From contig RSEE01000001.1 of assembly GCA_003971905.1 (NCBI GenBank), positions 744,001-808,000 on the forward strand: a stretch of DNA of 64,000 nt. The letters run 5' to 3'. The stretch comes from Moniliella sp. 'wahieum'. Its lineage: Eukaryota. Positions within the stretch are counted from its first letter, which is position 1. Every line of letters begins with the position of its first letter. The position numbers and the translations under genes are program-made. Below, piece after piece: positions 1 to 54,600 of the stretch. The notes under the pieces were generated by a model. It was not told where the DNA came from, did no database searches, and worked only from the letters and a program-made list of their open reading frames with translations.

Positions 1-84
1 CCTAGGCACTCGGCAGGGCCATGTCCAGCCCAGCACGATGCATGATGTGTGATGTGTGATGCATGATAGCCAACCTTCAAGCTT

Positions 85-1175
85 CAAGCTTCAACCTGGG
101 TCTCTGCTCCGGCTTCATCGCCGGGAAGGCGAGGACTTCGGCGATCCGGTTTGAGTAGGTCAGGAACATGGTCAGCCGGTCAATCCCCAGCCCCCAGCCC
201 GCTGTGGGCGGCAAGCCGTGCTCGAGCGCGCCGCAAACACCTCGTCAATCCCTTGCGCCTCGTCGTCGCCGGCGGCCGCTTGGCGCGACTGCTTTCGAAC
301 CGCTCCCGCTGGTCAAAGGGATCGTTGAGCTCCGTATACGCATTGGCAATCTCCTTTGATGCCACAAGGCTCGAACCGTTCGGGCAGACCCGGGATGGAG
401 CGGTGGTACTTGGCCAGCCAGCGGGCTCATCACCTCAAGGTGGCCCATGATAAAGGAAGGATTGATGCGCTGAGGCTCAATGTACTCGCCCACAAACTTG
501 TCCACCAACCGGGCCGATATGCGGGGCGCACTGCACTCCACCCTGTGCTACACTGCCAACTCATCCAGCCACTTACGCGCAGCCTCGGTGGAGCTGTTTG
601 GCAGGCGGGAAAGTGACATTGAGCTGCGCCTCGAGCTCCTTGATCATGTCGAATCGCCTCCAGGGGGTAGCAAAGTCAATCTCGTACACGGGGCCATCGG
701 GCTTATTCTTGCCGACATGATCCGAGGCAGAGACCATGATCAAGACCTTCTGACCCTCCGAGTGAAGATCATAAAAATGCAACTTGGCACCCTGCGCGCG
801 CACCGTGTGGATGCGGCCGGTAATGGACACTTTCTCCTCCAGCGTAGCTCCAGGGTCGGTGGTGGGGCCGTACTTGTCGATAAAGGCACCAAGGGAGGTG
901 TTTACATGGAACCTGTGAGGATACGGGTTGGACGCCTTGCTCTCACGCAGAGCCTTGATCGTGCGCGAGCGCTGCTCGTACTATTGCTGTGGGCTCAGTT
1001 CCCCCTCGTCCGTAGCGGACTTCGGCTTGGTCGCAGCCACGGGAGCAGCAGCCATCTTTGCCGCCTATTTTTCGGCGGACTGGCGCTCCTTCTGACGCCG
1101 CTTCAGTTCGCTCTTGCTGACCTTCTCGCCCATGACGGGGTCGAGGTGTGGGGCAGCGGCAGTAGCCTCAGACAT
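85..1175 (-). pseudogene. KRS1: Cytosolic lysyl-tRNA synthetase pseudogene (in-frame stops, large internal deletion)
   Basis: Reads MSEATAAAPHLDPVMGEKVSKSELKRRQK..PYPHRFHV..ITGRIHTVRAQGAKLHFYDL, then jumps to [48 protein letters not shown](T)[14 protein letters not shown]. In-frame TAG at 1065-1067 and 981-983. The class II motif 1/2 region is missing at a junction near 715. Confidence 0.9.
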
Positions 1176-2089
1176 GGTTATGGTGGTTCAAGCTTCAAGC
1201 TTCGAGGTGAATGGACGCCGGACTGAACCAACAGGTTGTGGAAAAGAAAAACAGGGGCCTACAGACACTGGCGCTGTGCCGTTCTTTAGACATATTCGCC
1301 CGGTCCGTGCATGTTAGGTTATAGCCCTAGGAGAGGATCTGTATCGTTTACGCCGGTAAACCCAATGGAATGCGGGGGCGGATGCACTATTAGTGCGAAC
1401 TCTTCCCCCCCCTTGTACTCCAACTCACTAACATTACCCACCCCCTCAAGTTCAACAGCCCCAAAGGATCGCGATGATTGGGTATCGTCAGGCTACATAG
1501 GAATGTCTCCTACATATGATACTAGTTTATTCACGTTCAACCCCCCCCCTCGGGCCTTGCAAAGCAGAGGAAAAGAGTGTAAGTGTGGCCCGAACGTCTC
1601 TGCCGACATTATAGCCAACCACACACCGGTCAGGCAATGCTGAGAACATATCCCGCCCGCCTCTCGTCACAAATGAAAGTCATTTATAATTCCCACACCT
1701 GTAGCAACTGCACACTCTTCACGACCTGCTCAGGCTGAGCCTTCGCATATAGGTGAGAGGCCCGATCGCTACTCTCCTGGCAACAGTCAACGCTCTACCT
1801 CCTCCCCTCTCACAGAGGCCACCATTTCGAGCATGCCAGACAACTCATCTCCGCATGTCCCATGGGCCCGGCTCCGGGAAAGGCTGTAAGTCCCGCCTCT
1901 CTCGGCTACAACTTTTGTGTGGCACAGCTTCGGCGGCGTGTTCCGACCGTTGCCGAACTGCATCAGTTGCTCATGTCCGCTCGTTCATTTTCCCTTTCGC
2001 ATATCCTCTCCTCCGCTAGCTTCCACCTGGATGAGATACTGACGGACTGTGTGCGGCTGCGATTATCCATCTACTACAGTCGCATCGGT

Positions 2090-3498: not shown

Positions 3499-4312
3499 TC
3501 TCCGATACCCATCATATATGAGTCATGCCGGGATGGATATAACACGGGCGGACATATGTGTTGGATTGACACAATATTTTGTTTCAACATAAAACGCATC
3601 TGAAGCTTGAACCCTTGGATGTACCTGAACGTAATAGCTGAAGCTTGAACAAGCTTTGAAGTAGTACTGGCTGACATGTGTCCTTAAGCCTTAGGCCTTA
3701 TGTTAGGTCCTCATAGTACAAACTCTGAGAAGTACTTGGCACACTCAGTGCCCATATACACAGTTGCAATAACCTTTTGTAGCCCGTTGTACACCACGTA
3801 GGGCAGTGGAGTAAAGATAGTAGAGCGTCCCACAGCCGACGGATCGTACACGCGCCATAACGCTCGTCTCCGTTCCTGACGGCAAAACGTCGAAGCGCCT
3901 TTTGGGGTCATTTCCGGGCATGCCAACACAGGTCCTGCTGCATACCGTCTCTTCTGGCCTACCCGTGTATCACACGTGCATAATCTTGCCCTCATTCATA
4001 TGTGTGAGTCCCTCAAAAGCCTCTGGTGCACCCCCAATGAAAATTTCCGATAGTTTTGTGTAGTCGAATCCGAAGGAACGAGTTGGGATTGTGAGTCGGT
4101 GCGAACCATGAAGCCCATGGCGAAAAACCCTCGGGTGAATAATATTAAGGCCCGAGAGGGTATATACCCCGTTCCATACTGCTGAAAACGTACTGAACTG
4201 TGTGGCGCGCGCCAAAAGCTTCAAAAGACTGCAACACGGTACAACCCATGTAGCATCGAAGCAAAAATCAGCATGTCAATCATTAATCAATCCCAGTACC
4301 CAGTGTGTGTGG

Positions 4313-4860
4313 GTTTAACGTTTAACGTTTAATTACAAGGCGAAAAAAGGGAAGGCGAAAAGGTAATGGGACTTTTGAAGATGCATGATGGACTTGATGC
4401 ATGACATGCGACATGCGACAGCAACTATTGACATGGTGACAGTAGCGTGCGTAGCGTGGGAAGCTACCAAACACCTGCCAGGGTGTTGTGATTCGATACA
4501 TACCACCGACGGTTCATGATTTGTCCGGAGACAGACGCATCGCGAGAGCGTTTTTGTCCGGCCGGTCATACGTGTCTACCCTGCGCTATGCAGAGCAAAT
4601 GAGAGCCCGAACTGAGAAACGCAGGTTTGACACTCGATAGAATAGCATGGCTATCATATATTAAGGTCCTTAGGCCTACTAGGGCGTACTAGGGCCTGCT
4701 ATGAAGCTTAAGTCAAGTACGTTAACGCGTTAATACGAGTTTGACGTCAAGTGTCCGAGTTATCGATGCTATCGCGGGTTTCGAATTGGACACGTACCCA
4801 GAGCCAGTAAGCTTGAAGCTTGAAGCTAGCTCTTGAAGCTTAATTGAATTGATAATTCAA
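4313..4860. repeat. Patch of palindrome-based heptad microrepeats (AACGTTT, CCTTAGG, AAGCTTG, AATT)
   Basis: gtttaacgtttaacgtttaa 4313-4332; aagcttgaagcttgaagct 4809-4827; dense GTTAAC/ACGCGT/ATCGAT/GACGTC at 4660-4780. Confidence 0.8.
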
Positions 4861-6221
4861 GGCACCACGATGATGTGCGATACATATGTTGCCCAATGCA
4901 TGATGCGTGATGTTGGCGGTGGGCGTTTCCAGGAGCTCGACGCTTGGCGCTTGGAGCGTGGAGAGCCTGTGATGGACCTAGTGGGGAAGAGGGAAAAGAA
5001 ACTGTCCATTCACGCGGCGCGCAGGGCACGCCAAAAAGCGTATGGATTCCTCCGGACGGTGGACGCTGTGAGTGGTGCTCGGCAACCTTCTGCAACCCGA
5101 ACGGGCGTTGGAGGTGAGACCGGAGAGCACAAAGTGAGATGGCCAAATTGGGGGTTTCAGGTTCGCGATGGCGAATCGACTAATCTCTTCGTTCGGATAT
5201 CCGCCTGTGGTACGCAGCACGGCATTCCCACCCCAAGGCCAACTAAACTCGGTGGCCCTGAGGACCTGTTGAGCACAGGCCTTCAGGTCGTCAGGGCCTC
5301 GCCGGTCACCGGCCCCGAGGAGGAAGCAGCGGCGCAAAGCCAATCCGCACCGCTGGGGAGCAGGAAGCGACGCTGTGGGCAGTGTGATGCAGTGTGCAGG
5401 CACTGCCCCCATAGGAGTCATTCGGAGATTGTGCGGGACAAGGCTGCTGCGTTCTTTTGCAGCATGCATCATGTGTGATGCAGTCACTAGTCACTAGTCA
5501 TGTCATGCACCATGCGTGTTTGCACGCGGGGGGCATGTCACACACCCATATCACCGGCCCAGGTGCGCGGGGAAATGCGCTGCCCCCGTGTGTCGCATGG
5601 GGCGAGCATCATAACCCTAATTGGCCGCAGCGCTGTCTGGCGCAGTCTCCGATTTGATCGATTCAAAAAGCCGTGTTTGGGGCCGACGCAGGCGGCAGCG
5701 CGGGGGCAGTGGGAGCACGGGGCGGGGGTCGGGTGTGCCTGAACGGGCGATTAGCATGGGACTGCCCCTGTGCGGGCATGGCCAGCAGTGCAGCCACTGC
5801 GATATCGATAATCGATAATCGGTACGTGAGATATGGCCGTGCACGCGTACGTAGGCAGGCGGGACGGGCGTGTTCCTGCAGCAGGTTTCCTTGGCCTGTA
5901 GCGCCGCCCGCACTGCGTCTGTGCTGGGCCCAGCCCCCCAGGCTGCGCTAGCACCGAGCATGGGTCGTCGCGGCTGCCCTCGTGCCTGGGCCTTTGCCAC
6001 AGTCGGCATGCTCTGCAGCAGGCTGGCCACTGCTTGGCCTGTGCCTGTTGTTCTTTGTGCTAGCTCCGTCTCATATAGTCGCACCCTCTCGCCACCACCA
6101 GTGCCTGCGGCCCCCCCGGCACCCCTCTGATTGCTACGCTCGTCAGTCCCGTCCCTCCCACGTTGCTCAGCGCCCCCCCGGCACGCCTCCTTCGTCTCTG
6201 CCGTCGTGCCCGCCGCCTCGA

Positions 6222-8011: not shown

Positions 8012-10115
8012 GCACACGATGCTTCTTGTGCCCCCCTTTTTTTCTTGCGCTGATGCTTTTCAGCGCCACGGCCTTCGTACCCCTCCCCTACCGAGGAGGG
8101 AGGTGCTCTCTGCCCAATGGGCTCACCCTATATCTGCAAGTCGGACGCTTGACGACCCATTGACGACCCTTTTGCTGACGAATCTCCTATGGGGCACTAC
8201 GGTTGGGCCCACCACTTTTGTTTTATTGTTCTCATCAGGCTTGTCTAGCAAGCTGCCGACTTGGTTTGCCCACGCCTTGAACCCCCCTCCCGTTCCACCC
8301 TGCCCCCCGCCTATCCAAGCCCTGCACCTCTGTTTCCTGATGTTTGTACTTGTATTTGTACCTTTCGCTGAAAAGATGATGGCGTGACTATCGAGACTAC
8401 CGAGCGTGAGGACTATTGATCGCCACCGTCTACCCATAGCTACCTTCCCCTTGGTCCTCTCATGCCCGCGTGCACTGGACGTGTGGGAGTGGAGCGAGAG
8501 ACGTTTGAGCGCTACAGCTGGGGAAAGAGGTGGGATTCTCACCGTAAAAATGTACTGATGAACTACTGTGCTGCAATGGATGCAATCGTATGGGGGGTAG
8601 GGAGATCAAGGGGATCTTGTCGAGAAGACATATGGGGAGGTTCCCACATGTTGGCCACGGTGCTTTCGGCTCTCTCTTCTCTGGGCGTAGGAACCCCGAG
8701 CTCTGAGAGCGCCTAAAGCCCTGAGAGGCAGTCTGGCGACGACCCGAAGCGTTCTTCTCAGGCTTGGTTGTTCCGCAGCCACAGGCCCAGTGGCGCTTTC
8801 TTGGCGTGTTGTCATTAATCATTTGTCGGTACTGAACTCAATCTTCATTCGCGTCATTAGTACACTTGGATCACCGTGCTCCCACCACCACTACTACTAT
8901 GGTAGTGCGATGATTGACGGCGTTCCTCTAGACGGCCGTTAGGGCCTTACGGGCGTGCCACTAATAGGCTTCTTCCACAGGTCGCATTGATCAGATAGAA
9001 TGTGGAGACGCTTGGGGGTGAGGCTGGTGACGCTGGGGCACAGGAGAGGATGGGATGGGACGAGGGGTCGGGCAGGCGGGGTAGTTCGTGCTGGCGACGA
9101 GAGGCCCCGTTTGGGTTGGGGCAGCACAACCGAGGTGCTTCGGCGCGTCTGGTCTGGTCCGCTTGGGCCGCGCAGCACCCAGCTGTGGGCAGCAAGCAGG
9201 GGTGCCGGCGGGAGGCTGGGCGGCAAGTATCAAATGGCGACGGGCGGGATCGCGTGATACGTGGTGCATGCTGGCTAGCGCTGCGCCTGCATGCGCTCCC
9301 ATGTTCCCAGGCGGGCCTGCGACGGCGCTGGGCCCCGCTGTGCTGGGCGAGGCGCAGGAGCGCCGGTGCCTGTCACGCGTTGGGCTAGTGTGCGCTGTGC
9401 GCTGGACGAAGATCTGATGAAATGCAAGATTGAAGCTGCAGATGGCAGATGGCCGATGGAAGATTGGTGTTGAAGCGGACATTGACTAGCGACGTTATGC
9501 GGAAGGACTAAGTGACGATCGATGGAGATTGATCGAATTGATCTTGCCCCGGGCCCGGCATCGCCACGCCGGGCACTAGGCCGCTGCTGGTGCATCCACC
9601 GCCGCCTGGTCCGGCACAGCAACACACTGGCCACGCACGCAGGAGAGCGGGCAGGTGCCTGCCCACACATATGCATGACATGCGTCTGCTGCGCCAGCGC
9701 GGGGCTCCGCATGCGGTTATTTCCGGAGCGGGGGCGCTGTGCTGCTGGCCGCCCTCCGCCGCTGGCAGCCGCACGGGCGGGGCAGCCGGCGCAGTGCACG
9801 GCAGCAGCCCGCACAGCACACTCGCGCCCTGCCGCGTGCGGGCAGCGCATGTCCGCCTGCGCCGCCCCAGGCGGCTCCCACCGCTTTGCAGCGGCTTTCA
9901 CGGGCGGAGGGCAGAATAGCGCAGCAACTGTCGCCTGCGGCCGCAGACGGCTGCATGCGCCGCTTCCCCGCGCAGGCGCTGCCCCCCTGCCGCGCCACGC
10001 CGCCACCGCTCGTCGTCCCCGGCGGCTGCACCGGCCGCATCCGGCCCGGTGCGGCCGGTTTAAAGTCGCCGGCGCGCCTTCTTCTTGGTCCGCCACGCTT
10101 CTCCTCCCCCCCACC

Positions 10116-11775
10116 ATGGCCCGTTCGCTTGCGCTTGGCTCGTCTGTGTCTGCTGCGCTCCGCCGCCCCTTCGCCTCGGCCCGCCCCGCTGCCCCCGTCC
10201 TCGCCTCGCTTGCCCGCCCCTCCTCGGCTGCTGCCCTCGCGCCCGCGCCCGCGTCTCGCCCTCCGCCTCCGCTGCTTTCTCCTCGTCTGCCCGCACCATG
10301 GGAGCCGGCCTTGGCGCTGGGGAGGACAACGTCCGCCCCCCCCCCGACCAGGTGATGCAGGACATTGCCGACTATGTCCACAGCTACGACATCACCTCCG
10401 ATGTCGCCTACCGCACTGCCCGCCTCGACCTGCTCGACACGCTCGGCTGCGGCATTGAGGCCCTCCGCTTCCCCCAGGCCAAGGCCATCACGGGCCCCGT
10501 CGTGCCCGGCACAGTGGTGCCCAACGGTGCCCGTGTCATTGGTACCGAGTACGTGCTGGACCCCATCCGCGCTGCGTTTGAGAACGGCGCGCTGGTCCGC
10601 TGGCTCGACTTCAACGACACGTGGCTTGCCGCCGAGTGGGGCCACCCGTCGGACAACATTGGTGCCATCCTGTCGGTTGCCGACTGGATCTCGCGCGAGC
10701 GTGTGGCCAAGGGCGCCGAGCCGCTGACGGTCAAGGATGTGCTCGAAGGCGCGATCAAGGCGCACGAAATCCAGGGTGTGATTGCGATTGAAAACTCGTT
10801 CAACAAGGTCGGCCTGGACCATGTGGTGCTGGTCAAGGTGGCCTCGGCGGCGGTGGTGAGCAAGCTGCTGGGCAACACGCGCGACCAGACGGTCGACGCG
10901 ATTAGCCAGGCGTTTGTCGATGGCCAGGCGCTCCGCACCTACCGCCACGCGCCCAACGCGGGCAGCCGCAAGTCGTGGGCTGCCGGCGATGCCTGTGGCC
11001 GTGCCGTCAACCTGGCGCTGCTCGTCAAGAATGGCGAGATGGGCTACCCTTCGGTGCTGACGGCGCCCGTGTGGGGCTTTACGATGTGCTGTTCAAGGGC
11101 AAGCCGTTCAAGTTCCAGCGTGGGTACGGGCAGCTATGTGATGGAGAACGTGCTGTTCAAGCTGCCCCGGCCGAGTTCCACGCCCAGACGGCCGTCGAGG
11201 CGGCGCGCGAGTTGCACAAGCAGCTCAAGGCCCAGGGCAAGACGTCGGATGACATTGCGTCGATTAAGCTCCGTACCCAGGAGGCTGCCATCCGCATCAT
11301 CTCCAAGGCTGGCAAGCTCAACAACTATGCTGACCGTGACCACTCGCTGCAGACATGGTTGCCGTTCCCCTCATCCACGGTGTTCTGGAACCCACATGTA
11401 CACGGACGAGTTTGCCGCCGACCCCAAGATTGACGAGCTGCGCGCCAAGATGACGGTGGAGGAGGAGCCTCGCTACACGGCCGAGTACCTGGAGCCGGAG
11501 AAGCGCTCCATTGGCAACAGCGTCGAGCTCGTCCTCAAGGACGGCACCAAGTTGGGCCTGTGGCGATTGACTACCCCGTGGGCCACGCCCGCCGCCGCAC
11601 GGAGGCCATCCCGCTGATTGCCGCCAAGCTCGACAAGCACCTCGACGGCTTCTTCCCCGAAGAGACCAAGACGGCCATCAAGGACTTCTTGAAGGACGAG
11701 AACCACGACAAGCTTGCCTCGACCCCGGTGCACAAGTTTGTCGACCTCTGGGTTAAGCCCGAGGCTCGCTCCTAA
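10116..11775 (+). CDS. PDH1: 2-methylcitrate dehydratase (MmgE/PrpD family) with a mitochondrial presequence-like N-terminus
   Basis: DTLGCG, RWLDFNDTWLAAEWGHPSDNIG, AHEIQG, LDHVVLVKVAS, YRHAPNAGSRKSWAAGDA, AEFHAQTAVE, DRDHSLQ, EKRSIGN, YPVGHARRR. Ala/Arg-rich N-terminus. Several single-base frameshifts. Confidence 0.95.
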
Positions 11776-12272
11776 ATGGTGCTCCTGCTGTAGGTGCCAT
11801 GCATTCAATTCAATATGGCCTCAAATCCAACCTGATTGTATGTATAGATGCTGCATGGGGACCTTCGAACAGCTTATAGAAAGGGCCGTAGGCGTTCTGC
11901 TGGTGTCCTGATTCAGGCAGTACGGCTCAAGGGGAAGGCTTGAATTGAATCCGAATGCAAGTCCTCCAAACTGGTCCTTCAAGAGATAGGGTGGTGCTGT
12001 TCCAAGAGGAGCACAAGGGGAGGAATGGAAGACGGGGGAGTTGAAGAGAGTGTGGGGGGAACGCGTGTGGGCTAGTATATGTTGGAGTGTTCTAGAAGGT
12101 GCGCAGGCCCCTCTGGCCATGCTTGTGGCCAATCAACATGGGGCAGCAGGCAGGACCGAGACCTGCTTGGCCCACTTCCCTCTGGGCTACAGAAACCAAA
12201 AAGGGACGGGGGATCTTTCATGTAAATGCATCTTTCTCAGACTGTTGCAAAGGGGTGGAAGCGGGCGCGCGC

Positions 12273-12294
12273 GGGGGGGGGGGGGGGGGGGGGG
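12273..12294 (+). repeat. G22 homopolymer just past the CDC45 stop
   Basis: Direct read; the length is unreliable in long-read data. Confidence 0.8.
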
Positions 12295-12306
12295 AGGGGT
12301 AAACGA

Positions 12307-15017
12307 CTAAACGCGCAAGTGGAGGGCCTCGATAAAGGGCATGAGCTGTTCCGCCGGCACGTCGACCAGGTGGGTGTCGAAGCGGTCATGGACCGACTCT
12401 ACCCCAGCTTCCAACGCCGCCGACTGGAACGCCAGTCCAAACCGGTTGGCCTTGACGGCGCCCACTTGCGACCCGCCAGCCAGACGACCACGACGTACAC
12501 TTGCCGTGCCACATCCAGTGCTGCCACCACAAACGCGATTCCACGCCTGGCACTTAGCCGCTCCGCATGGTCCCGCGCCTCCTGCGCGGCCTCTGCTCCT
12601 GCGCGTCTTCCTCGCCTGTGGGGGTTGGAAGAAGAGAGGGTGGTGGGGGGTGCGGGCCGCTTGCGGTTGCGCTGGCGTTGCGCTGCCTGGACGACTTGTG
12701 GTGCGCATGGCGCCGTTCCATGTCGGCAATCGAGTCGCGCAGCGCATCTACCAGCCAATGCGCCAGGCGGGGCCAGCATGGCCGGTTGAGCAAACAAGGC
12801 AAGGTCCGGCCATCCTTGAGTACGACCAGCCGAAAGTTGCGCAGCGCCTTGATCGCGTGCTTCTCTACCAAGGCAATCCCCGTACTGAGCACCGCGCGGT
12901 GAAGCGCTTGGCCAAGACCAGCGACGATTGCAGCAGATCCAAACTGCACAGGACACAAGGCGTAGGGTACAATCAGGTCAGTCTTTGTACTGGGTCGCGC
13001 GTTGAAACGAGAGAGGGAGAGAGAGAAAAGAAAAAAACCTACCTTTGCGGCCGCGTCGCATCCAATGCACTGTAGGCAGCGAAAAAATTGCGCACCCAAG
13101 CGTCTTTGCGACGCTCATCTACTTGGATTGATCCTTGATTCGGGTCCAACTCATCCGTCCCAGTCGAAGCAGTGCCTGGGGGACCCGAGGGGAGCACTCC
13201 CGAGCCAGGCAGACGCCAGGCCGTTTGGACGCAAACCAATCTGATGTGTACGTCCCGCCGGCCGCGGCCGAGGCCGCTCGCCAGCCCTGAGCAGCGGCGG
13301 AGCGGAAAAGGCAAGACCAGGCGCATCGACGGTAACCTGTACGCCGGTCGCGGCGTGCAGCAGCGCCGCAGCGCCTTCGACCGCATCGGCCGCGGAGAGT
13401 TTGGGGCTCGAAAGCCCCGTTGGCGGGCAAAGGAGCGGAAGGTCGAGTCGCCCAGGCCATATTCTCGAGCGATCGTCTTGATGCGCGGGATGAGAGCTTT
13501 GCAAGTCCAGGTCCATGTACGCGTGCGGCTGCCGACACGCCGTCAAGCTGAACCCCATCTTGGCCAACAACCCACGCAGTTGGGCTCGGCCAGTCGCGCC
13601 ATAGGGAAAGTTTGGAGGCGACAAAGCCAGTGTGGAGCATGCTTTCCTCCAGCGACCAGTGGCGGTACAGAACAAACCGAAGTTCGGCATTGACGACGCG
13701 AATGGCGCGGCTGTCGGCACCAAGAGTGCGGGATGCATCCAAGAGCGACTTGGGAGCTTTGGATTTGGTGGTGGAGGACTGATCACACTGGCTCCATCGT
13801 CCATCGCCTTCCTCCTCATCTTGGTCCCCTTGCATCACGTCCCCGCCGCCGCCGCGATCGGGGTCGGGGTTGCGAGCAATCACCCCCTCTGCCAACTCAT
13901 CGGCTTGCTCAGCGTAGGCTGACCCAATCTGCCCACTTGTGTACTGCGATGTTACACCAGAACGGCGAGCCTGAGGCAGGGGACAAAGGGGAGGGTCGGT
14001 CAGTTGACTGTAGACAAAAAGCGATGCGGGGGAGGCAAGAGGGGGGGGGAGGTGGGGGCATACCATAAGATCTCGTTGTCTACACGGCCCAGCGCCTCAG
14101 CCAGCATCCAGAGCATAGCGGCCACGCTGCGCCCCATGGTGGTACCCGTTCGTAGTACCGGGTGAGCACGTTTTGGTAAACGGCGCGTGCGTGATCGGTT
14201 AAGCGTTTTGGCTTGGCTTGGCTTGGTGAAAGGGCAGACCATCCGGCCAATGAGGGTCTTTTTGCGGGGGCGGTCCTCGGGATCAACGTCGCTGCCATAG
14301 TCGGAAGGAGCAGCGTCGGAATCTTCCTCCGAATCGGACGCTTGGCCATCATCAAACTCGAGTTGGTCGTAGGCCTCCATCTCGCTCGACAGGTCGGCCA
14401 CGCCGCCATCGTCCCAGATGCAGATGCGGTCCATGATGTCAGACGTGGCAAAGAGACTGTCCAAGTTCCATGGGCGATGGCTGTCGATCACATGGACCGT
14501 ACAGAGGGGGGCAGGGGCAAGCGCGTTTTTCCTCCTCGTCGTCGCTGAGGGGGTGGAGCGGGCGTCAGCCTGCGAGTGGGCGTGCGAGGTACGGAAGTAG
14601 GTGGAGAGGGAGAGGACGGATCCGAGGTTGAGGAAGACGACGGTGCGGAGCGAGTGTTGGTGGCAACATGCTGCTCGAGGACCTGCTGTAAGCTGGCGTA
14701 CCCTTCCACAGGCACAATCCGGTACGGCACATCGTCGTCGGTGAGGAGACGTGCCAGAGCGGGGCGCCAGCGAGCGCGTCGACGTCGGCAGCAACCAAGA
14801 GGAGAACGGCGGTAGCAGCAGCGCCGAGACGGGCGGGGCGGGGTCAAGCCAGGCGTCGCCTTCGTGGGCGGCGGGGGCGTCGGCGCGCGGCGGAGGCCGA
14901 TGAGTTTGGCGCCGCGCGCGGCGCGGACAATGGCGCGGTAGGCGGTGGCGAAGTCGGGGCCGGGCGGGGCGGTTCTGCGCTCGGACGAGGCGGGCTGGGG
15001 GGGTAGACGAGCACCAT
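12307..15017 (-). CDS. CDC45: DNA replication initiation factor Cdc45; introns ~13971-14063 and ~12944-13042
   Basis: VAADVDAL..LLTDDDVPYRIVPVEGY, VFLNLGS, VHVIDSHRPWNL, ELRFVLYRHWSLEESMLHTGFVASKL, LLAKMGFSL..C.Q, KLSAADAVEG, C-terminal NRFGLAFQ..FD..FIEAL. Confidence 0.93.
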
Positions 15018-15112
15018 GGGGGGGGGGGGGAGGGAGGAGCGGTGGAGGAGGACTGGCGCGGATCCTGCTGGTGTGCGCATCCACTCGTGCTGCCGCTTCA
15101 CCTCCACGCTGC

Positions 15113-17907: not shown

Positions 17908-18467
<560 letters not shown>

Positions 18468-35600: not shown

Positions 35601-36618
35601 AGCCTCAACCCCCTCGATGATCGATGATCAGCGCTCAGCCCACCACGTGAATTGGCCGCCCCAACCCAAAATGCTACCACCCCCAAACCTCGTCGGCCGG
35701 TGATCATAGTGACCGGTGACAGCTTAGCGTCACATGTCCCACATCACTAGCTCATCACCGCACACTGGTTGCGCCAGCCCTGGGCGATCGATGGGTAGGT
35801 AAGGGTATAGCCTTGTGTAGCTGTTGTAGTAGAGGGCATATACTTGCCTGCACCCATTGAAGCGTTCTCCCCAGTGTTGAACAGCTTCCTCCTCGATCCT
35901 ATCAACGCCGAACATATGAGCACTGCAATCTATACGGAAGGTGCAGGAGGCTCTCCGCCAGGGATCTGCGGCGCGAAGCAAGTGCTTCATGCAGTTTGTT
36001 CCACCGCGCGCGTTCTTTCTATTCACAATAATTCCCACCTCTTCATTGAAAGGTGCCGCCACGAAACCTGCAACAGCTCCAAGTCCTTCTTCTTTGCCAA
36101 CGGAAGCGAAATGAGGTTTTCTCCTCTCGTCGTCCCATTCAAGATCAAAGAAAAGCGATCAAGAATGACATTCATGCCTCGGGAGGGCCGCACTGTGCCG
36201 AGGTAGCGAACCGCCTACCGTGGGTGTTTATGGCCGAGTTTGTTGCCAATGATGCGTCCCATCATCGAGCACCTAGACATGGCTTGATTCGGTGAAGCTT
36301 GTTGGCAGCTTTGACGATAGGAGGATCTCAATCCTGGCCGTCTGCTCTTCCTGCCTCGGACTCATTCAGTAGGGAAGACTGGTGCCACCTCGACATCATT
36401 TGTTCGTCCCCAAGCAGAACCCAGCGCTGTGTGGCAGATGCCTGGGGCTCTATGCTCCTCCATTTGGATTGGAACAGGGGTTGAAAGGTTTGGAGAACTC
36501 GTTTGCAGTGCTTGATGAGGATCTTGAGTTGGGACGTCTTTTTTGAAGGAGTCCTGGCGAAACAATTCGCCCGGTAGCGAGACTGAAGGAATAATTGGCA
36601 GCAAAACTAATAAAAGTC

Positions 36619-36714
36619 TGGTCAATATGAGGCTTGAACTCATGACCTTGGCATTACCAACACTCTTAGAAAGACATATTAGTACCACGCTCTGACCAAC
36701 TGAGCTAATCGACC
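36619..36714 (-). tRNA. tRNA-Ile(AAT) with a ~22-nt intron
   Basis: GGTCGAT TAGCTCAGTTGGTCAGAGC G TGGTA CT-AAT-A[intron]A TGCCA AGGTC ATGAG TTCAAGC CTCAT ATTGACC A, then a TTTT terminator. Confidence 0.92.
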
Positions 36715-39481: not shown

Positions 39482-39489
39482 ACTTGACA

Positions 39490-40917: not shown

Positions 40918-40988
40918 GGTGGACGTGGACGTGATGGGAGGTAGTGTAGGTGAGCGTCACGCCGCTTTCAGTACTTGCGTCTGGGCGC

Positions 40989-41161
40989 TGACTAGTGACT
41001 AGTGACTAGTGACTACCTAGGTCACTTGCCATGCAGCGTGATGCATAAGTACGAGCCAGTGCAGGCTAGTGCCCAGCCGGAGCGCTGAGCCAGTCACACG
41101 CCACTAGTCACTTTCCCAGTGTGCCAGCCGGCCCTGGCGATGTGATCGATGATCGATGATC
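40989..41161. repeat. (ACTAGTG)n and (ATCGATG)n heptad arrays
   Basis: tgactagtgactagtgactagtgacta 40989-41015; gatcgatgatcgatgatc 41144-41161. Confidence 0.85.
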
Positions 41162-42959
41162 ATCCCCGAGATGATCGGTCGTCGCTGAGGCTGGGCGCTG
41201 ACGCTGGTCTTTCCCTGCGCCGGTAGAAGCCGCGTGGTGCAGCAGCCGCGGCGGGTAGCAGCGATGCGCTCGGAGTAACTAGCAGCGAGGAAGCGGACAA
41301 TTACGCCGTGTCGCACTGCCAAGTGCCGTTGGGCCATCGGTGCAATGGCATGGTCTGTGAGCAGATAGGGCCGTGTGAACAGGTCTGCGTTTCGTTTCGT
41401 TTGGCCTGTCGTCAATCGTTGCACTACTTCACTGGTCTCCCCACCTCCATCGACCCAGCGCAGGTGCTTAGCATGCAACATGCGCTCCTCGGCTCCAAAG
41501 CGCACTCCCATTCGACACTGAAGTTCAATACTCAGTGTACTCAGTGCTCAATGTGGGTGATGCATGATGTGACTCCTCCTCGATCATCGCAGCTCGGCGC
41601 TTGGAGCTTCTCTAGACCCTGTACAGCTATCTGTGCCACTGCTGCAACTGTGGCGCAGATATCCCCGCCAACGTCGAGATATCCCCACACGCCCGCTGTT
41701 GCAACACATGTGTTGGTTGCAAGTGAATCAGTTAACCATTGGTCATTAGTCATTGTCAACATCCAAGCAGCTTCTCTCCGCCTGCCTGGTCCACACCGTC
41801 GTTTGGTTTTGCATGGCCACACTTATGGTCAGCTGTTTCCGTTGTGCCTGCTCCTGGGCGGCCGCTGGGGGGTGAACGGAGTGAGCCTGGGTGAGTTCAT
41901 TCCGTCAAGCGTCACGCGTCACTATCGGCATTGTGGCATGTACCCATCCTCCCAACGACCCGTTATTTTACACACAACTACAGTGAGGCCCTTGTCTCTT
42001 TCCACTACCATTTGTCTGTTGGCCCGTCTTATTGACCGAGGATCAGATCGCAGAGAGAGGTCCAAGGCCAAATCCACGATGACGTACGCTGCAATGCGGA
42101 CACACGTTGGCGGCGAGCCAATGGAGCCTGTACTCTCTTCCAATTCCCCGAAGAGATGAGCGTAGGCGGGCGTGCGAACAGATACTCCCCAAGAGTCTCC
42201 TTCCGACCCCCAACAGATTGCACCCAATTTAAAACCTCTGGGACGGGCGCCCAGACTGGGAACGCCCATGTCAAGGGCCCCATAGCACGGCGCGAGTCTG
42301 ACATCACTCTTTTCTTCTTCCCCCATCCTTAGTCCGCGGGCTAGAGATATTAGATCCACAGATTCTGTCTTCTCTCTACGTCTGCATAGCAACTGCACTT
42401 TTGGGACGTTACTGCGGCAGATTGATCTCCACGCTCCAGCATGTTTGACATTTCCTATTGCGTTACGCATATATGCCCTTTTGGGTAATCCTGCACCCGT
42501 TTGCGAGCTTCTCTAACGTCTGCGCTTCTCCGCTCAAGCGTTTCAGCTGCAATGCCTTGCTTTGAATCTGGAACGTTTTGAACCCATCGAGCTCTCTTCA
42601 CTAGTCACTGCATTTCAGCTTCACAATCTTTCCATTTAATTGTAACCCTCCAATCTATAGAAGCTATGATTGAGTACAGTGAATTCTATGGGTATGCCAA
42701 TTTGCTTGCTGGGACATGTGGTTGTGGACCTGCCGCTTAGGCAGCGCTCAGCCTGAGCGCGCATGCAGCTTGCGCTACGCAAGCGCATCATGCAATCCAT
42801 CACAGATGCTTGTCATGACGACCCCGGCATTGATGTCTTGGCGATCGACTGTCTCGATGATCTCTCGGTGATCGCAATGGTTAATGTTCGAGAGCATCGG
42901 AGCGGCAGATGTGAATTTTGTGCGTGCGTGGGTATCTCACAGATGTGGCTACGACCAAC

Positions 42960-43400
42960 GTGAATAGTGACTATAGTCACATGTCACATCTAGTCACAGG
43001 AACTAGTGACTATTGATTGTCACAGTGGCCAGAAGTGACTAGTGACTAGTGCTAGTGAAGCTTGAAGCCAGTCAAGTATTATAGCGACTACAGTGAAGCT
43101 ATTTGAGCTTGAAAAGCTTGAAGCTTGAGGAGCGGTTAAGGAGAGTTCGAGAAGCTGGAACTTGGAGCTTGAAGCTGTAGTAGTTGTACGTTATCGATTA
43201 TCGACCTATGCCCCTGGTCCGCAGCATCTCAGCGCGCTGAGCCGCTTAGGCACTCCGAGGCCTCGAAGCTACCTAGCTGACGCGCTCATCCGGCTGAGGA
43301 GCCTAGTATAGTCCTCGCAGGCCATTTTTTGATGTTCAGCTTTTTAAATCACTGAAACGCCGAGGGTGCTCAGCGCGCTGAGGCTGAGGCGCTGATGGGC
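42960..43400. repeat. Serial patches of ACTAGT, AAGCTT, ATCGAT and GCTNAGC-type palindromic repeats
   Basis: agtgactagtgactagtg 43034-43051; aagcttgaagcttga 43114-43128; tatcgattatcga 43192-43204; ctcagcgcgctgag twice. Confidence 0.8.
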
Positions 43401-43514
43401 TCAGTCCGTCGCCCTTGAAACTTGAAGCGTAACCACCAGCGCTTTTAGCAACTCGACGCTTATTACCACCGTCTTGTGTGACCCTACATCCTCTCTTCCC
43501 ACCAGCTTCGCACC

Positions 43515-45774: not shown

Positions 45775-45950
45775 GACGTTCAACGTAACGTTAAACGTTA
45801 ACGCTAACGCGATAACGTTTAACGTTTAAGTGTTAACTGTGAACGTCACGCGTCAAGTGCCCAACGGCGATAATCGATAACGCGTAACGCGGAACGCGCA
45901 ACGGTTAAACGGAAAGCGTATAATAAGGTTTAACGTGTTTATACGTTTAT
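45775..45950. repeat. Degenerate AACGTT/GTTAAC/ACGCGT palindromic repeat patch
   Basis: aacgtaacgttaaacgttaacgctaacgcgataacgtttaacgtttaagtgttaac...gataatcgataacgcgtaacgcg. Confidence 0.85.
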
Positions 45951-47046
45951 CCATCTGATGCATTGCACAGTACTAGTACTGGTTCCTAGACGGACCAGCG
46001 CGGGGGCACGCTGGCGTTGAGACGCTGATGGCGCTGATGCACTGATGAGAGCATTAGGGTCGCGGCGCCGCCACCAAAGCCGAAGGAGGGTGAGCGGTCG
46101 AGTGGCGGCTGTAGGCCAAAGGCGATGATCGATGACATCTGAGATTGGCTGGCCGAGTCTCCTGACCGCCTGACCCTCCGGTCACCGCTGTCACCGGTCA
46201 CCAGCAGTCACGCACATGCATCATGCTACACGCTACCCCCCCAGTAATGGCCTGAGCGCCTGCAAAGAGCGCCTGAGCCCAATGCTTAGGAGCCGTTGAG
46301 CGAACATGCATGTTGCGCATCATGCTCATGTCGGTACGAGATGCGATCTGCCAACAGGCCATGCCGATCGGAGAAAGAATAGGCAGGAAACTGTGACACA
46401 ACAAAGTCAGTATGTAGAAAACTAGTGACTAGTGACTAGGATCGGCGGGAAGAGTGGTGAGAAGATTCCCCTGATTAGCTACGAGGACCGTGACAGAAAC
46501 GACAACGCGTTCAATATTCCATCTCCTGCTTCGGCGCCCAGGCCAAGACAGGCCCCCACGTGTGTTGTGCTAATCAACATGACACTTAAAGCTTAATTCA
46601 ATACCAGGGCATATACCTGCTATAGCACTGCTATATATCTTTCCGCACCAGCCGTCTGTACGTCCAATACGGCTTCCAAGTACCAAGTACTCAGACTGGG
46701 TTCTGAAAGAGTATACTGAGTACTGGTGGATATTCCCCTGCAGAGACGAGAGCGACTCTTACGAGCTCAGTATGGAATCCCCGTGTATGTGTGCCGCCTT
46801 TCCAGCGCCCCGCGAACTTCCCCACGGTTTGACCTGTGGATAGTGCATGTGCTTGGCCAAACTGGTCAGACAGTGGTCATCGGTCATCGGTCAGCGGTCA
46901 GCCGGGCAGCCGGGCAGAGGGGCAGACCTCAGCCTGAGACCAAAACTGCATATTCGTTTTTTAATGAGCGGATGCAGTGTTGGTGGAGAGCAGCAATTAA
47001 AACGTCAAACTGTGGAGCTACACAGACTCGTTGGGGCATCCTGCGC

Positions 47047-47384
47047 TGCATCATGCATCATGCATCACATGTGATGCGTGACACGTGAGGTGAGCAAGCC
47101 ATGCATACCATGCTCACCATCACCGATCACCAAAATCATTTGATCATCGGCCCAATCATCGATCATCGATCATCGCCAAGTCTGGGGCATCTGATCTCCG
47201 ATCTCCGATCTCCGATCTCAGAAAGTTCAACGTACTCTTCACCGTACTAACAACGCTCACGCCCAACACCAATGTGCTTTGCGCTCACCTCTAGCAGAGC
47301 TGCGCGCCCAAGCTCAACCGCCCAACCATCAACAGGAGTGTATAGGTGTGGGGCACCACGGAGCTTTTCAAGCTTCAAGCTTCA
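47047..47384. repeat. (ATGCATC)n, (ATCGATC)n, (GATCTCC)n and (AAGCTTC)n heptad arrays
   Basis: Direct reads at 47047-47067, 47155-47175, 47193-47219 and 47367-47384. Confidence 0.85.
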
Positions 47385-48731
47385 GGTCTCCGCCGCCGGC
47401 CCTCGGGCTTCAGCCTGAATGTGTTGGGACGCAGCGGAGAAGCAATACGATCGAAGACCACTGTTCGTTGCCACATCGTCCGCCCCCGCACCCCCCGCAG
47501 AGACAGGCGATTAAATAAGCAGCCGTTGGGGGGCACACCATTCGTTCGGCGGTCCCTGGCTGCGCTATCGCATATCGACGTCGAACACGTTCAACGTCCC
47601 ACCCTTCGCATAGCCGTCCGGCGTCAGCGTCATGACCGATGACTTGGACGACTTGATGAGCTTGATGGCCTGAGGGCCTGGGCGTGATGCCCGCGATCTG
47701 AGATGTGAGAAAGAACAGCACGCCCCATATCAAACGAGCACCAGGCGGGGCGGATGGGAGGAGCCTCGCATCAGAATCAGGCCGTGTGGGGACGAGGTGC
47801 TATGGGTGGGCAGACGGCGGACACCAGGCGGGCAGACGGCAGGCAGGGAGCATGCGAGCACTGCTGTGCCTCCATGTGGCGGCCACCCAGTGCACCCGAG
47901 CCTCGGCAGGCGGATGCACCCTCGCCATGCATCACGCGTCACCAAGGCGGCTGGGTGCGGTGACGGTGACGAGTTGACTGCGACGAGTGACTCCAGCGAC
48001 GAGTGACGAACGATGGTATAGGACGGCGACCCAGCAGGTCAGCCGGCAGGGGCGGCACTGGGGCGACGCAAGGCAGCCCCGCTGGCGTGTGTGATGCCAT
48101 GCCGATGGCGTGTCAGCTGAGGGCCACCCTCCCTCCAGGCAGCACCTGCAGCCGGAGCGCCAGAGCGCTCACTGCCCGCGGGCGTGTCGCCAGTGCGTCG
48201 CCTGCGTCGCCCTTGCTCGCCCTTGCTCGCCGCTCCAGACGGCGCCCCAGGCGCTGTCCGCCCGTCGTCCCAGTGGTGGTCGCCGTGGTCGTCCCCACGC
48301 GTAGGGGGCGCATGCGGGGTTTGAGTGCGGGCCGCCCCGTGGGGGACACTGGCGGGGTGCGTGCGGTGGCCAAGACACGTTCGGCCGCCGCGGGCTGGGG
48401 GGTGGCACAGCGCAGGCGCAGGACGGTGCTGTGCGGTACCTTGCAGCTGGCTGCGCCTGGCCGGCCGCAAGCGAACCCGCAGCCTGGGGGACACTGGCGC
48501 GGTGCTGCGGCGTTGGGCCCGCCGTGGCCTGCAGGCGGCATTGCGACTGGCAGACGCAGCTGCTGCTGCCGCGTGCCTGCCTGCTGTGTGCGGCCGGCCG
48601 CCTGCCGCTCTTTCCCGCCGCTCGGCCGGCCAGCAGCAGCGCCTGTCTGCGATAAAACTGCAACGCAGACCGCACTCAGCACACCGTCGCCCCTCCGTCC
48701 CACCACCACCACTCCCACCGCTCCCCGCGAC

Positions 48732-51612: not shown

Positions 51613-54600
51613 AACCTCTTCATTTCTTTTGCATCATCTGTCAAGGTACTCGTGGAAGACCTTCAGTTCCTCTCACGTCTTCTTCCTCTTTCACTGTCGA
51701 ACGTTGCTGAAGTCTACGAGCTGTTCCCCTCGGGTACGCCGCCTTCTTTTCTCATGTCCTTTCACGCCAGTGTCTTTTGTCCGGACCTCCTTTGCACGTC
51801 TCCCTTGTTCTCCCCTCCGGTTGTGAATCGCTTTGGGCCATTGGCTCGTTTCTTTCTGTCCCACGGGGTCGTTGTGCCTCTAGTCTTTGTCCTCTCTTGA
51901 TCTTCATCACGCTCTGCCATCAGTTGTTGCAGGCAACACGGCCGAGTACGACCGCATTAACCCCTCCCCCCTCTCTCACCTTTGCCCCATCTCCCTTTTG
52001 TTCGTTGTCTAGCTCTTGTTTCATCTCAGTATTGCATGTCTTCGCCCTGTCTCCGCCCATGAACTTCATGCAGTTGCGCCCCGTTGGCTAGCTCGAGCCG
52101 GAGACGGCTGCCCCTGGTGAATGACAGTTGAACGTTGATGATTGACGCGGTTGACGTGGACCGGTTATGGTGAAGGGGATGGACGGTGAGCCTACGTTGA
52201 ACGTGTTCCGTACGCTGAATGCAAAATGAACTGCTTTGAATATCTCTCTACTGTAACCAGATCGTCGACAGAGCTTTAAGGCCCGTTGGGACGAAGAAAC
52301 GCTGCGCCTACTAAACCGACATGCCCATCCGGCGTGTGTTGCTTGGTAGCGCCAAACACTCACGTTTAGGGAACCAGGGGAATCGCCACTAGGTCAGGAC
52401 CTTCTGGGGCCCGCCATCCGGTCTCATATCCGAGGTAGCGCGTGTGGATACGAATGAACGTGGTACACATCCGAGCGGGGAACCACCTCCATCGAGACTC
52501 AGTTGTAGGTAATTGGGGTCGATGGTGGACACATGGGATACGGTGGAGGAGGTGCATTGCCCAGAGGTGTCGACATCACATCTGACATGCGACATGTGAT
52601 ACGGCATGCATGTGACATGGGGCATGTGATGCGATATGTGATGTGACATGTGACGCATCCCCATGGGGAAAAGGAGACCTGCTCGCTTGGGCCGTCATGC
52701 CCAACACTGGCGCCATTGCCCACCACCATCCCCGCCACGCGGAACGACTTGGGGATGGAATGTGCGACCGGTGCGGATGGGAAGCCACGCGACGCTTTCT
52801 TGGCCGGACCCTGCATGGCCGCCTCCATCTGCCTCGCCGATTCTCCTGGGTTAGAGGCAACGGTGGATGAAAGCCCCAGCTCGGTTGCCGGCGAGCCACC
52901 AAGACCCCTTTCATGGTATACCACAAGGCCCAAGTCCACATGTCCACAGGTCCACATGTCCACTTTTCCAACCCAGGTTACCAAAAGGTACGGCGAACCG
53001 CACAGGCCAAACCCTTCTGGTTGGCGATTGTAACGTGCTAAACCAAAAGGCTATGTGTGTCTGATCGAGAAAACGTGTTTGATTCTGTAAGCGCAGACCG
53101 GAAGAACATCGATCAGCCGGAAACGGAGGAGAATGGAGGTTTTCTCTCCATCGTCAGAGAAACGGGGGAGAGGATCAGAGTACTTATGATGGTGGCGAGG
53201 AGCCCACACATGCAAAAGCCGTCAATCATCAAGGGAGACATTGTCCCCGCAGCGGAGCCTGAAAAGGGAGCGCCCGGCCTCTGGCCATCAGCCTTGGGTG
53301 CCCGGCGGGAGGCACGCTCCCGGCGTTTCTTGGGATGGGAAACTATGTGATACGAGCACGCCACGAGAGGGACCCGGCCGACCCGGTGTCGATCTAATTT
53401 GGGGATGGTAGAGGGGGTGAGGTGGCACGGACCACTTCGGTGCGGACGATCTGTTGGGGACGAGGCAAGGTGCCACTGCTAGCCGCTTCAGTGCTGGCGA
53501 TCAGAAGAGGGGTGACCGGAACTAGTCGAGGCGAGTCGGCCGATTCAGTCTCGGTTGAAGGAGGGGGCATGGTGGAACTGGGATCGACCTCAGTGCTGGC
53601 GGTCTGTGCGACGGGGGGGAGAAGAACGTCAGTGTCGGCGAAAAAAAAAAGTGCAGGTACTGTGGCGCGTACATGTTCGTCGAAGAATGTGTGCGCTGTT
53701 CAAAGTCCAACCCATGCTTTTCCTTATGTTGCGGTCAAGGTGTGTTTCATCTCTCCTCTCCTCCTGTATTGTTCCACTGATGTAACCCTTCCATTCAGAC
53801 CAGGTACCCAAAACCCAAAGGTTAGGCCATGCCCTGAGTTGTACAAGCTTTTTGCGGAACAGTGCACGAGCGAACTGCAACACCTTTGGAACGCCGGGAG
53901 AAGGAACTGCTTTGACTGTTGGAACAAAGAGAATGTGCCAAAAATGTCAAGTACCACGGGCACACCGAAGAACGCTTTTTCTCTCTGGTTATGACGACAC
54001 GAGGATACTATGCCACCAAGACGACGAACACGATGTTGGCCTCTCCTCGTCCCTAGATCCGCTCGGATCCACCACCTGGCCCAAGTCCGAAACTAATATC
54101 ACAGCTCCCGCTAAAACCTTCCTCCGACATCTGTATAGTTTCTTTTTCTTCGCAGTCGTTGCCACTCCTTTCCTCCCCCTCTTTCTCTCTCCACTCCATT
54201 CTCATCCTCTTCTCTCTCCGTTATCTGCTCTTTTCCTTGCCATGATTTCATCAATCCACTCGATCTCCTGTGGACCATTTTCTGACTCTTGACTGTGCGC
54301 TGCTCCGCTTGGGGGCATCATATCAAGAGCTGGTCGTATCTTTGGTGGCGGTGGACATGTATAGTACCATGGCCAACACGACGGACACACTCGGTTAACA
54401 CACTTGACATTCCAGCTCACGGGCTACTTATATAGCATGATCTGACGCTACAGTGATAGAATGAGTTGGGGTTGCCTTCCTTTCTCACTCTGATGATTTG
54501 CCGCCATTTCGTCGTCGCTATGAGGCCTCATAACTTGATGCTCTCTACGGTGGCCAGGCTGGTTTGGTTGATTATCTCGCTATCCGGGAACAGGGACCGG

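Follow-up and report, generated by a model that had tools for sequence, protein, structure and literature searches.

Seven-base-pair arrays in the window

The stretch of DNA analysed in this study (the window) comprises 64,000 bp of contig RSEE01000001.1 of Moniliella sp. 'wahieum' (assembly GCA_003971905.1, positions 744,001 to 808,000). It is fungal DNA with a GC content of 58%, in which Pfam profiles matched CDC45, GDI, UTP15, PrpD, histone H3, CENP-C and a Zn2Cys6 domain, among others. The PrpD protein is closest to those of Ustilaginomycotina (60–64% identity for Ustilago, Pseudozyma, Violaceomyces, Tilletia and Malassezia, and 75% for one contig). The window also carries many short tandem arrays with a period of 7 bp, and it is the structure and the possible origin of these arrays that we address here.

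The initial annotation had described the arrays as repeats of a 6-bp palindrome plus one base. All 16 arrays listed there were found again, as was the patch at 45775–45950; each is a perfect period-7 repeat, 14 bp or longer, and its position differs by no more than 1 base from the one given. In total, we identified 42 perfect tandem arrays of period 7 (at least 2 units), compared with 4.83 ± 2.04 (maximum 9) in 100 shuffles, which preserved dinucleotides and were done within 500-bp blocks. The other periods yielded 52 arrays against 17.4 in shuffles (period 6), 4 against 1.4 (period 8) and 7 against 0.36 (period 9). The period-7 excess is real, and the observation of such arrays is confirmed at a level far beyond chance.

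A 6-bp palindrome is present in 22 of the 42 arrays, and all 22 palindromes have the form A....T. The array unit can therefore be read as TNA (T, any base, A) plus a 4-bp palindrome, which is equivalent to the "6-bp palindrome plus N" described initially. The enrichment of the other 20 arrays is only about that of period 8 (by arithmetic from the shuffle counts), and 6 of them contain T.A in their unit, which is the chance level; the special excess at period 7 is therefore that of the TNA-plus-palindrome class. The same figure (6/20) led us to reject a class of perfect 7-bp duplications lacking an inversion. Several units recur, namely AAGCTTC (five times), ACTAGTC (four times), ATCATCG and AAACGTT (three times each).

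Anatomy of the TNA-palindrome-TNA motif

The motif TNA-palindrome-TNA, with the same N in both triplets, occurs 55 times at 45 loci. The triplets involved are TGA (23), TCA (21), TTA (6) and TAA (5), while each other triplet in the same arrangement is found at most 6 times. Pairs of identical TNA triplets are most numerous at a spacer of 4 nt (116, compared with 26–66 at the other spacers of 0–11 nt), and the spacer is palindromic in 55 of these 116 pairs, where about 7 would be expected. When the two triplets were allowed to differ in their central base (TN1A-palindrome-TN2A), N was unchanged in 55 of 69 cases; N is therefore copied and not complemented. Its use tracks the background of TNA sites in non-coding DNA (504/455/189/182). 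Two TNA copies are present at 36 loci, three at 8 and four at 1. Twelve different 4-bp palindromes are used across the 45 loci, which agrees with the earlier statement that the arrays do not represent a single transcription factor site.

The sequence of the palindrome is related to that of the neighbouring DNA. At the 36 two-copy loci, the palindrome half matches the flanking dinucleotide, in inverted form, on the left side only in 12 cases, on the right side only in 11, on both sides in 5 and on neither in 8 (for each side, the match expected by chance is 1/16 and the binomial p about 1e-10 to 1e-11). In other words, 28 of the 36 loci contain a flank-derived inverted half, which would be the case for about 12% by chance. 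The minimal event may be written as xyTNAzw → xyTNA-y'x'-xyTNAzw, or, in the mirror form, xyTNAzw-w'z'-TNAzw. Five bases are repeated directly and two are inverted from the flank, giving a net gain of 7 bp, and the left-flank (L) and right-flank (R) forms are equally frequent.

This geometry is fixed. The arrangement xyTNA + k + xyTNA was found 94 times at k = 2, including 60 cases with an inverted spacer, compared with 5.1 (0.15) in 40 shuffles. Counts for other values of k ranged from 4 to 25, with the highest at multiples of 3, and no other spacer length stood out; a single inverted base (k = 1) was found 6 times against 1.1, and an inverted spacer of three bases once. When strict events were stripped iteratively, 46 of them (322 bp) could be removed, compared with 0.47 (maximum 2) in 30 shuffles.

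The flank-derived half bears directly on the idea that short palindromes already present were multiplied by ordinary slippage during replication or by unequal exchange. Where two copies are in place, slippage could well supply more (as the 36, 8 and 1 loci with two, three and four copies would allow), and other short tandem duplications are enriched about 3-fold at all periods. However, it cannot make the first inverted dinucleotide, and the excess is confined to the 22 lattice arrays of TNA plus palindrome among the 42 of period 7, the non-lattice ones being no more enriched than those of period 8. The view of the initial annotation that plain slippage is not responsible was thus upheld, and we rejected microsatellite or minisatellite slippage as the origin, since the first copy already carries the inverted dinucleotide of the flank; as a complete explanation it is very improbable. 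Duplication of a pre-existing palindromic 7-mer was likewise discarded, as it predicts a match on both flanks, which is seen at only 5 of 36 loci. A dispersed repeat or miniature inverted-repeat transposable element family would share flanks beyond the motif, and no repeat of at least 30 nt at more than 77% identity was found in the window.

The T-N-A triplet itself is a requirement of the site. At the first position of the motif only T is enriched (73 cases, against at most 5 for each of the other three bases), and in 60 of the 73 the second TN is followed by A; T-N-A is therefore not a by-product of the inversion. The latter figure also rules out a 4-bp duplication with 3 P-nucleotides. A symmetric 5-bp duplication, which predicts two TNA triplets separated by a 2-bp palindrome, is no better placed, as 8 of 32 such pairs correspond to chance. 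The inversion is centred 2 nt beyond the T (on one strand) or 2 nt beyond the A (on the other), that is at points 7 bp apart and symmetric about N. Among 31 reconstructed targets, C precedes the T in only 3 (background 24%, p = 0.04) and G follows the A in only 2 (background 26%, p = 0.007). The preference is mirror-symmetric, which is what a dimeric enzyme with its centre on N should show.

These features also bear on the mechanism put forward in the initial annotation, in which breaks at random positions are filled in by a repair polymerase through snap-back or template-switch synthesis, with no site-specific nuclease. An inverted dinucleotide beside a direct copy is indeed a snap-back type of product, and the general idea of break repair with a snap-back or hairpin component fits the data. 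The part that did not stand is the generic polymerase acting on random breaks, because the events are tied to TNA and have one geometry (5 direct plus 2 inverted bases). Random breaks would not favour a first T in 73 cases against 5 or fewer for other bases, nor would they be expected to yield a single inverted length (2) and a single direct length (5). Longer palindromes are only mildly enriched (22 against 12.6 for an arm of 6, and 7 against 2.7 for an arm of 7), and the ends would have to share 5 bases beforehand, which a simple break does not provide. We therefore regard this form of the explanation as improbable.

Genomic placement

The arrays had been reported to be restricted to non-coding DNA, and this held in our analysis: none of the 45 TNA-palindrome-TNA loci lies within the 8,566 bp of Pfam-matched DNA, and none lies in coding-like DNA. 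The coding score (obtained with a crude self-trained Markov model) is low at all 45 loci, while 37% of the window scores above 2. It is below 0 in all 22 lattice arrays, and above 2 in 5 of 21 other period-7 arrays. Absence from coding sequences would also be expected from selection, as a 7-bp insertion there would be purged anyway.

Within low-coding DNA the loci are clustered (chi-square 47.9, 15 degrees of freedom, p = 3e-5), with 22 in the 40–48 kb interval, 13 in 0–8 kb and none in either 36–40 kb or 60–64 kb. Most clusters lie upstream of open reading frames (ORFs), although the gene models are approximate. The patches 42960–43210 and 45775–45950 are composed largely of such motifs. One locus (2762) is located between two pieces of a metacaspase domain, probably in an intron, and others lie behind gene ends. 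Older copies show free decay, for example at 45871–45910. A single tRNA gene is present in the window (36619–36714), away from the clusters.

This distribution may be read as that of functional cis-regulatory or chromatin elements, i.e. tandem sites for palindrome-reading proteins that are kept by selection. The intergenic position, often upstream of genes, would agree with such a role, as would the recurrence of a few units (AAGCTTC, ACTAGTC, ATCATCG and AAACGTT). Nevertheless, 12 different palindromes are involved, half of each is set by the neighbouring flank, and the spacer N, which a palindrome reader does not need, is copied unchanged. In addition, the loci include one in a probable intron and some behind gene ends, and old copies decay without apparent restraint. 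Maintenance as binding sites is therefore quite improbable, and the best explanation is that the arrays are mutational scars, not signals.

An artefact of base calling or of an error-prone long-read assembly has also to be considered, the more so as indel errors are numerous in this assembly (three overlapping frames are needed to read GDI, with a similar picture for PrpD and CDC45). Such errors would not avoid coding DNA, in which none of the 45 loci is found although about 37% of the window is coding-like, nor would they follow the TNA-and-flank rule, and this explanation is scarcely credible.

Proposed origin of the arrays

A hairpin (P-nucleotides) or a fold-back has as its signature an inverted copy that abuts its own template. 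The fixed geometry tied to T-N-A points to an enzyme whose cuts around TNA are at defined positions with 7 bp between them, as is the case for transposases. The equal frequency of the mirror products and the mirror-symmetric target bias suit a dimeric enzyme with a 7-bp stagger. Our preferred reading is that the arrays are scars of breaks with a 7-bp stagger about TNA whose ends were hairpins, opened 2 nt from the tip, and that they were most likely left by the excision of a cut-and-paste transposon which duplicates 7 bp of target; we assign this reading a probability of about 0.5.

According to this proposal, a cut-and-paste DNA transposon would insert at nnTNAnn with a 7-bp target duplication centred on TNA. 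At excision both flanks would be converted into hairpins formed exactly at the border of the element, and host nucleases would open each of them 2 nt from the tip, producing 4-nt self-complementary overhangs. If end joining dropped one overhang (that flank losing 2 of its own bases) and retained the other (which gains 2 P-nucleotides), exactly the L and R mirror products would be formed, with a constant gain of 7 bp. Each event would create a new perfect site, and further events at the added TNA, perhaps together with slippage, might chain into arrays of 7-bp period. The hairpin intermediate itself is deduced from the form of the products.

Several observations weigh against this reading. No element that has terminal inverted repeats (TIRs) together with a 7-bp nnTNAnn duplication was found in the window: a strict search, run for duplications of 3, 5, 7, 8 and 9 bp, returned only chance matches or the arrays themselves, with 0 matches for this element, and a relaxed nnTNAnn search gave 7 matches, of which 5 are the arrays themselves (0–3 in shuffles). 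No DDE cut-and-paste transposase was recognised by Pfam in 415 of the 421 stop-to-stop ORFs of at least 75 aa (115 of at least 150 aa and 300 of the 306 of 75–149 aa; six ORFs at 62877–64000 were left out). The window also lacks long repeats, with no direct or inverted repeat of at least 30 nt at more than 77% identity and no pair of long terminal repeats (LTRs). Under the excision reading, the element must therefore be rare or extinct in this genome. Yet the scar rate per TNA site is estimated by simple arithmetic at about the same order as point mutation per base, so a very active element would be needed, of which 64 kb contain no copy.

The products themselves raise further objections. Hairpin footprints obtained by experiment vary far more than the scars do: at a single site, 128 excisions of Ac/Ds gave 28 footprint types in the experiments described in part of PMC5873905. 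The +3 class (TNATNA with the same N) is not enriched (47, against 26–66 at spacers other than 4), and candidates for a +11 class, in which both overhangs would have been kept, were rejected because their flanks do not fit (4 of 44). Judged from sequence, an asymmetric 5-bp duplication with one-sided P-nucleotides would fit equally as well as a symmetric 7-bp stagger with trimming. Moreover, the events are presumed to be insertions and not deletions.

The sole mobile-element domain detected in the window is one stretch of rve integrase, in an ORF at 33746–34924 on the minus strand (E = 2.4e-8), with no LTR pair and no other retroelement domain nearby. A search for proteins of similar length gave no homolog (longer proteins were not searched). 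This ORF is probably a decayed retroelement fragment.

The missing element is accounted for by a different proposal, in which no element takes part. Here the DNA around TNA would be nicked or cut, at points 7 bp apart and in open chromatin, either by a nuclease that the host encodes (domesticated from a hairpin-forming transposase, for example) or in a transposase reaction that aborts. Kat1 of Kluyveromyces lactis is a domesticated hAT transposase which makes hairpin-capped breaks as the product of a host gene, without a mobile element; it acts at one locus, for mating-type switching, and not genome-wide. In the case of the window, the products might arise from hairpin ends, as in the excision model, or from a single nick. 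In the latter version 5 nt would be resynthesised, the new strand would switch to the displaced flap at the self-complementary T.A, run off after 2 nt and be ligated to the flap end, so that nicks on either strand would give the L and R forms with no trimming.

A nuclease of this kind would explain why the window has neither an element nor a transposase, why the products are so extremely uniform and why scars cluster in certain intergenic regions. On the other hand, no candidate gene was identified, and the scar sequence would be the same as under transposon excision. The single-nick version has the added difficulty that the 2-bp pairing of T.A with A.T is a weak basis for template switching, and mini-palindromes based on G and C, which should work better, are unused. 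We regard this proposal as possible but rather unlikely. Doubtful, too, is its fullest form, in which there is no mobile element at all and a host-encoded, probably transposase-derived nuclease repeatedly makes TNA-centred staggered or hairpin breaks of 7 bp in open intergenic chromatin, whose stereotyped repair steadily adds new DNA to promoters. If true, it would represent endogenous, sequence-specific insertional mutation, which per TNA site would be about as frequent as point mutation, and the promoters of this lineage of Ustilaginomycotina would gain 7-bp lattices full of A-NNNN-T palindromes and stop codons.

Comparison with known transposons

Hairpins on flanking DNA are formed by hAT, Transib and Mutator-like elements and by RAG, and their repair leaves footprints, as outlined in part of PMC5499845. 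Those of Ac/Ds in a fungus (Candida) carry P-nucleotide palindromes, which, in hAT footprints, have as their centre the complement of the base adjoining the element (the relevant part of PMC5873905). The scars resemble the products of hAT elements (Ac/Ds, Hermes) in that both copies of the target duplication are retained, short inverted copies of the flank are found at the joint and the net insertion is close to the duplication length; such footprints do occur in fungi. In contrast, the palindrome in the window is even (y'x'xy) and N is unchanged (55 cases with the same N against 7 with a complementary one: 3+3 C/G and 1+0 A/T), which led us to reject an odd-centred hairpin of the hAT type. 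Whereas hAT products are heterogeneous, one type is dominant here (an inverted spacer of 2, 60 against 0.15). The scars thus differ on two counts that define classical hAT footprints. The hAT duplication is, moreover, usually 8 bp, and the window has no hAT gene or terminal repeats.

Transib elements make 5-bp target duplications, and both Transib and RAG nick exactly at the border, which results in even P-nucleotides. The scars are similar in having even-centred additions of about 2 nt, which we read as P-nucleotides, with the 2-nt inverted copy directly abutting its template; they differ in that the symmetric 5-bp model is at chance in the window (8/32), where no Transib gene was found. We class them with transposon-type hairpin scars, among which they behave as border-exact ones (Transib/RAG-type), with a 7-bp rather than a 5-bp stagger.

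The T-N-A core is shared with PIF/Harbinger elements, whose target is TNA/TWA and whose excision, in the case of Harbinger, is mostly precise. Their 3-bp duplication (given in a part of PMC12730594) would leave TNATNA, i.e. the class that is not enriched in the window (47 against 26–66 apart from spacer 4).

Duplications of 7 bp, equal to the stagger proposed for the window, are known in Basidiomycota from hAT7 in Pucciniales and Kyakuja in Laccaria, although the sections of PMC12730594 that treat these elements report neither from Ustilaginomycotina, and neither is present in the window. No KDZ domain was detected by Pfam in the scanned ORFs, and Kyakuja (CA..TG termini, KDZ transposase) is comparable by duplication length only. 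For hAT7, the length fits, but the consensus nnTNAnn fits neither of the published hAT patterns nTnnnnAn and nnnTAnnn. The latter pattern is the target of TcBuster-type hAT elements (from part of PMC10512250), which is symmetric with a central T/A core, as in the window, but has 8 bp and a central TA instead of 7 bp and a central TNA.

Occurrence in other sequences and significance

A scan of metagenome contigs for (TSAAGCT)x3 identified at least 121 contigs, mostly with long degenerate tracts of one heptad. Heptads of the TCAAGCT/TGAAGCT type, in 3–7 units, are present in one metagenome contig with a GC content of 0.30 (L075/L076) and in about 120 other contigs of very different GC content, often inside such degenerate tracts. 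In 447 kb of this material, 8 of 172 other period-7 arrays consist of TNA plus a palindrome with a different unit, and additional scars occur at 0.056 per kb, compared with 0.56 per kb in the window. Three different units, without a dense system, were found in one contig (L053), and apart from this weak hint the multi-unit scar system was not found in the scanned metagenome contigs. Searches of open-access papers gave no account of heptad lattices, or of 7-bp scars centred on TNA, from Ustilaginomycotina.

Should the arrays be excision scars, the genome would record tens of thousands of insertion-excision cycles (extrapolated from 46 events in 64 kb) of an element that is almost copyless, and would be a rare case in which the history of a cut-and-paste transposon is legible from its footprints alone. 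The scars would also provide a testable biochemical prediction, namely that nnTNAnn is cut with a 7-bp stagger and that a hairpin is formed exactly at the border and opened 2 nt from its tip. If no element exists, they would point to an undescribed site-specific mutational process which builds promoter DNA de novo. Either way, the scars make up a measurable share of intergenic regions and create restriction-site-like hexamers and stop codons in all frames, and they should be treated by annotators as scars rather than motifs.

Individual loci and other features of the window

The loci located by motif search are described in their order along the window, a flank match denoting agreement between the palindrome half and the inverted flanking dinucleotide. 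TGA-TGCA-TGA (57–66, two TNA copies, no flank match) is followed by TCA-AGCT x2 -TCA at 77–93, in an AAGCTT+N array at 75–94 (initially reported as 76–94) whose left flank, CT, matches, and by TCA-AGCT-TCA at 1188–1197 (AAGCTT+N array 1187–1203, right flank match). Exactly between these two arrays, which have the same orientation, lies a copy of a lysyl-tRNA synthetase gene (95–1186, minus strand; matches to LysRS in PDB, E = 8e-27) of only about 364 codons, which lacks about its middle third and is interrupted by breaks of frame and in-frame stops; TTGAA / TTCAA is common to both junctions. The fragment may have been taken up where a single array had broken, and that array would then be marked as a site of breakage.

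TGA-CTAG-TGA at 2762–2771 (right flank match) separates two ORF pieces matching Peptidase_C14, in the probable intron mentioned above. The following two loci, 3601–3610 and 3639–3648, are both TGA-AGCT-TGA with no flank match, while TTA-GGCC-TTA (3691–3700) and TCA-TTAA-TCA (4280–4289) match on the left. A TTA-ACGT array with three TNA copies (4315–4331; AACGTT+T, array 4313–4332) precedes TGA-TGCA-TGA at 4395–4404 (no flank match) and TGA-AGCT-TGA at 4814–4823, which lies within the AAGCTT+N array 4809–4827 and matches on both flanks. Next are a TCA-CTAG array of three copies (5484–5500; ACTAGT+N, array 5482–5500) and TAA-TCGA-TAA at 5809–5818, within the ATCGAT+N array 5804–5821.

Further along, right flank matches are seen at TCA-TTAA-TCA (8812–8821) and TTA-GTAC-TTA (19114–19123) and a left one at TGA-CATG-TGA (25724–25733); TCA-ACGT-TCA (19959–19968) and TGA-AGCT-TGA (28937–28946) have none. 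TGA-TCGA-TGA (35618–35627, within the ATCGAT+N array 35614–35629) adjoins TCA-GCGC-TCA (35628–35637, right flank match), and TGA-CCGG-TGA (no flank match) is found at 35710–35719.

Next is a TGA-CTAG array with four TNA copies (40989–41012; ACTAGT+N, 27 bp perfect at 40989–41015). It is followed by a TGA-TCGA array of three copies (41143–41159; ATCGAT+N, array 41143–41161), TGA-TGCA-TGA (41558–41567, right flank match), TCA-CGCG-TCA (41912–41921, left) and TCA-CTAG-TCA (42598–42607, right). The dense patch 42960–43210 contains TCA-CATG-TCA (42977–42986, right flank match), TGA-CTAG-TGA (43036–43045, within the ACTAGT+N array 43034–43051), TGA-AGCT-TGA at 43056–43065 (right flank match) and again at 43119–43128 (within the AAGCTT+N array 43114–43128), and TTA-TCGA-TTA (43191–43200, within the ATCGAT+N array 43191–43204).

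The AACGTT patch includes TAA-ACGT-TAA (45792–45801, array 45787–45801) and TTA-ACGT-TTA (45819–45828, array 45813–45829). TCA-CGCG-TCA (left flank match) lies at 45846–45855, and TAA-TCGA-TAA-CGCG-TAA at 45871–45887 is succeeded by decayed copies (GAA, CAA). Beyond these are TGA-TCGA-TGA (46126–46135, left flank match), TCA-CCGG-TCA (46191–46200, right), TGA-CTAG-TGA (46426–46435, within the ACTAGT+N array 46421–46439) and TAA-AGCT-TAA (46587–46596, left). Three arrays of three copies each then occur, namely TCA-TGCA (47051–47067; ATGCAT+N, array 47047–47067), TCA-TCGA (47156–47172; ATCGAT+N, array 47155–47175) and TCA-AGCT (47368–47384; AAGCTT+N, array 47367–47384). The last loci are TCA-CGCG-TCA (47932–47941, no flank match), TGA-ACGT-TGA (52129–52138, left flank match) and TGA-CATG-TGA (52644–52653, within an array at 52641–52654).

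The same intergenic patches contain arrays which fall outside the TNA rule. GATC+TCC (x3.9, 47193–47219) and CATG+CGA (x2.6, 4403–4420) are one triplet base off it, and neither a patch of the ACATGTG type (52571–52654) nor the period-8 array GTCCACAT (x3.8, 52934–52963) obeys it. A perfect 14-bp palindrome, CTCAGCGCGCTGAG, is present twice, 141 bp apart (43228–43241 and 43369–43382), upstream of an ORF at 43433, and a related sequence, GCGCTCAGCCTGAGCGC, is found at 42744–42760.

Three conserved single-copy genes, GDI (55063–56503), PrpD (10064–11617) and CDC45 (12310–15097), are read in 2–3 overlapping frames with contiguous Pfam positions (for GDI, 6–158, 156–226 and 225–433 across three frames), which is a sign of an assembly with frequent indel errors, not of introns. 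The tRNA gene (minus strand, Rfam score of 52.5 bits) was missed by ARAGORN, and its 96-nt span suggests an intron. A 27-nt run of G (92% pure) at 12273–12299 adjoins the 3' end of CDC45.

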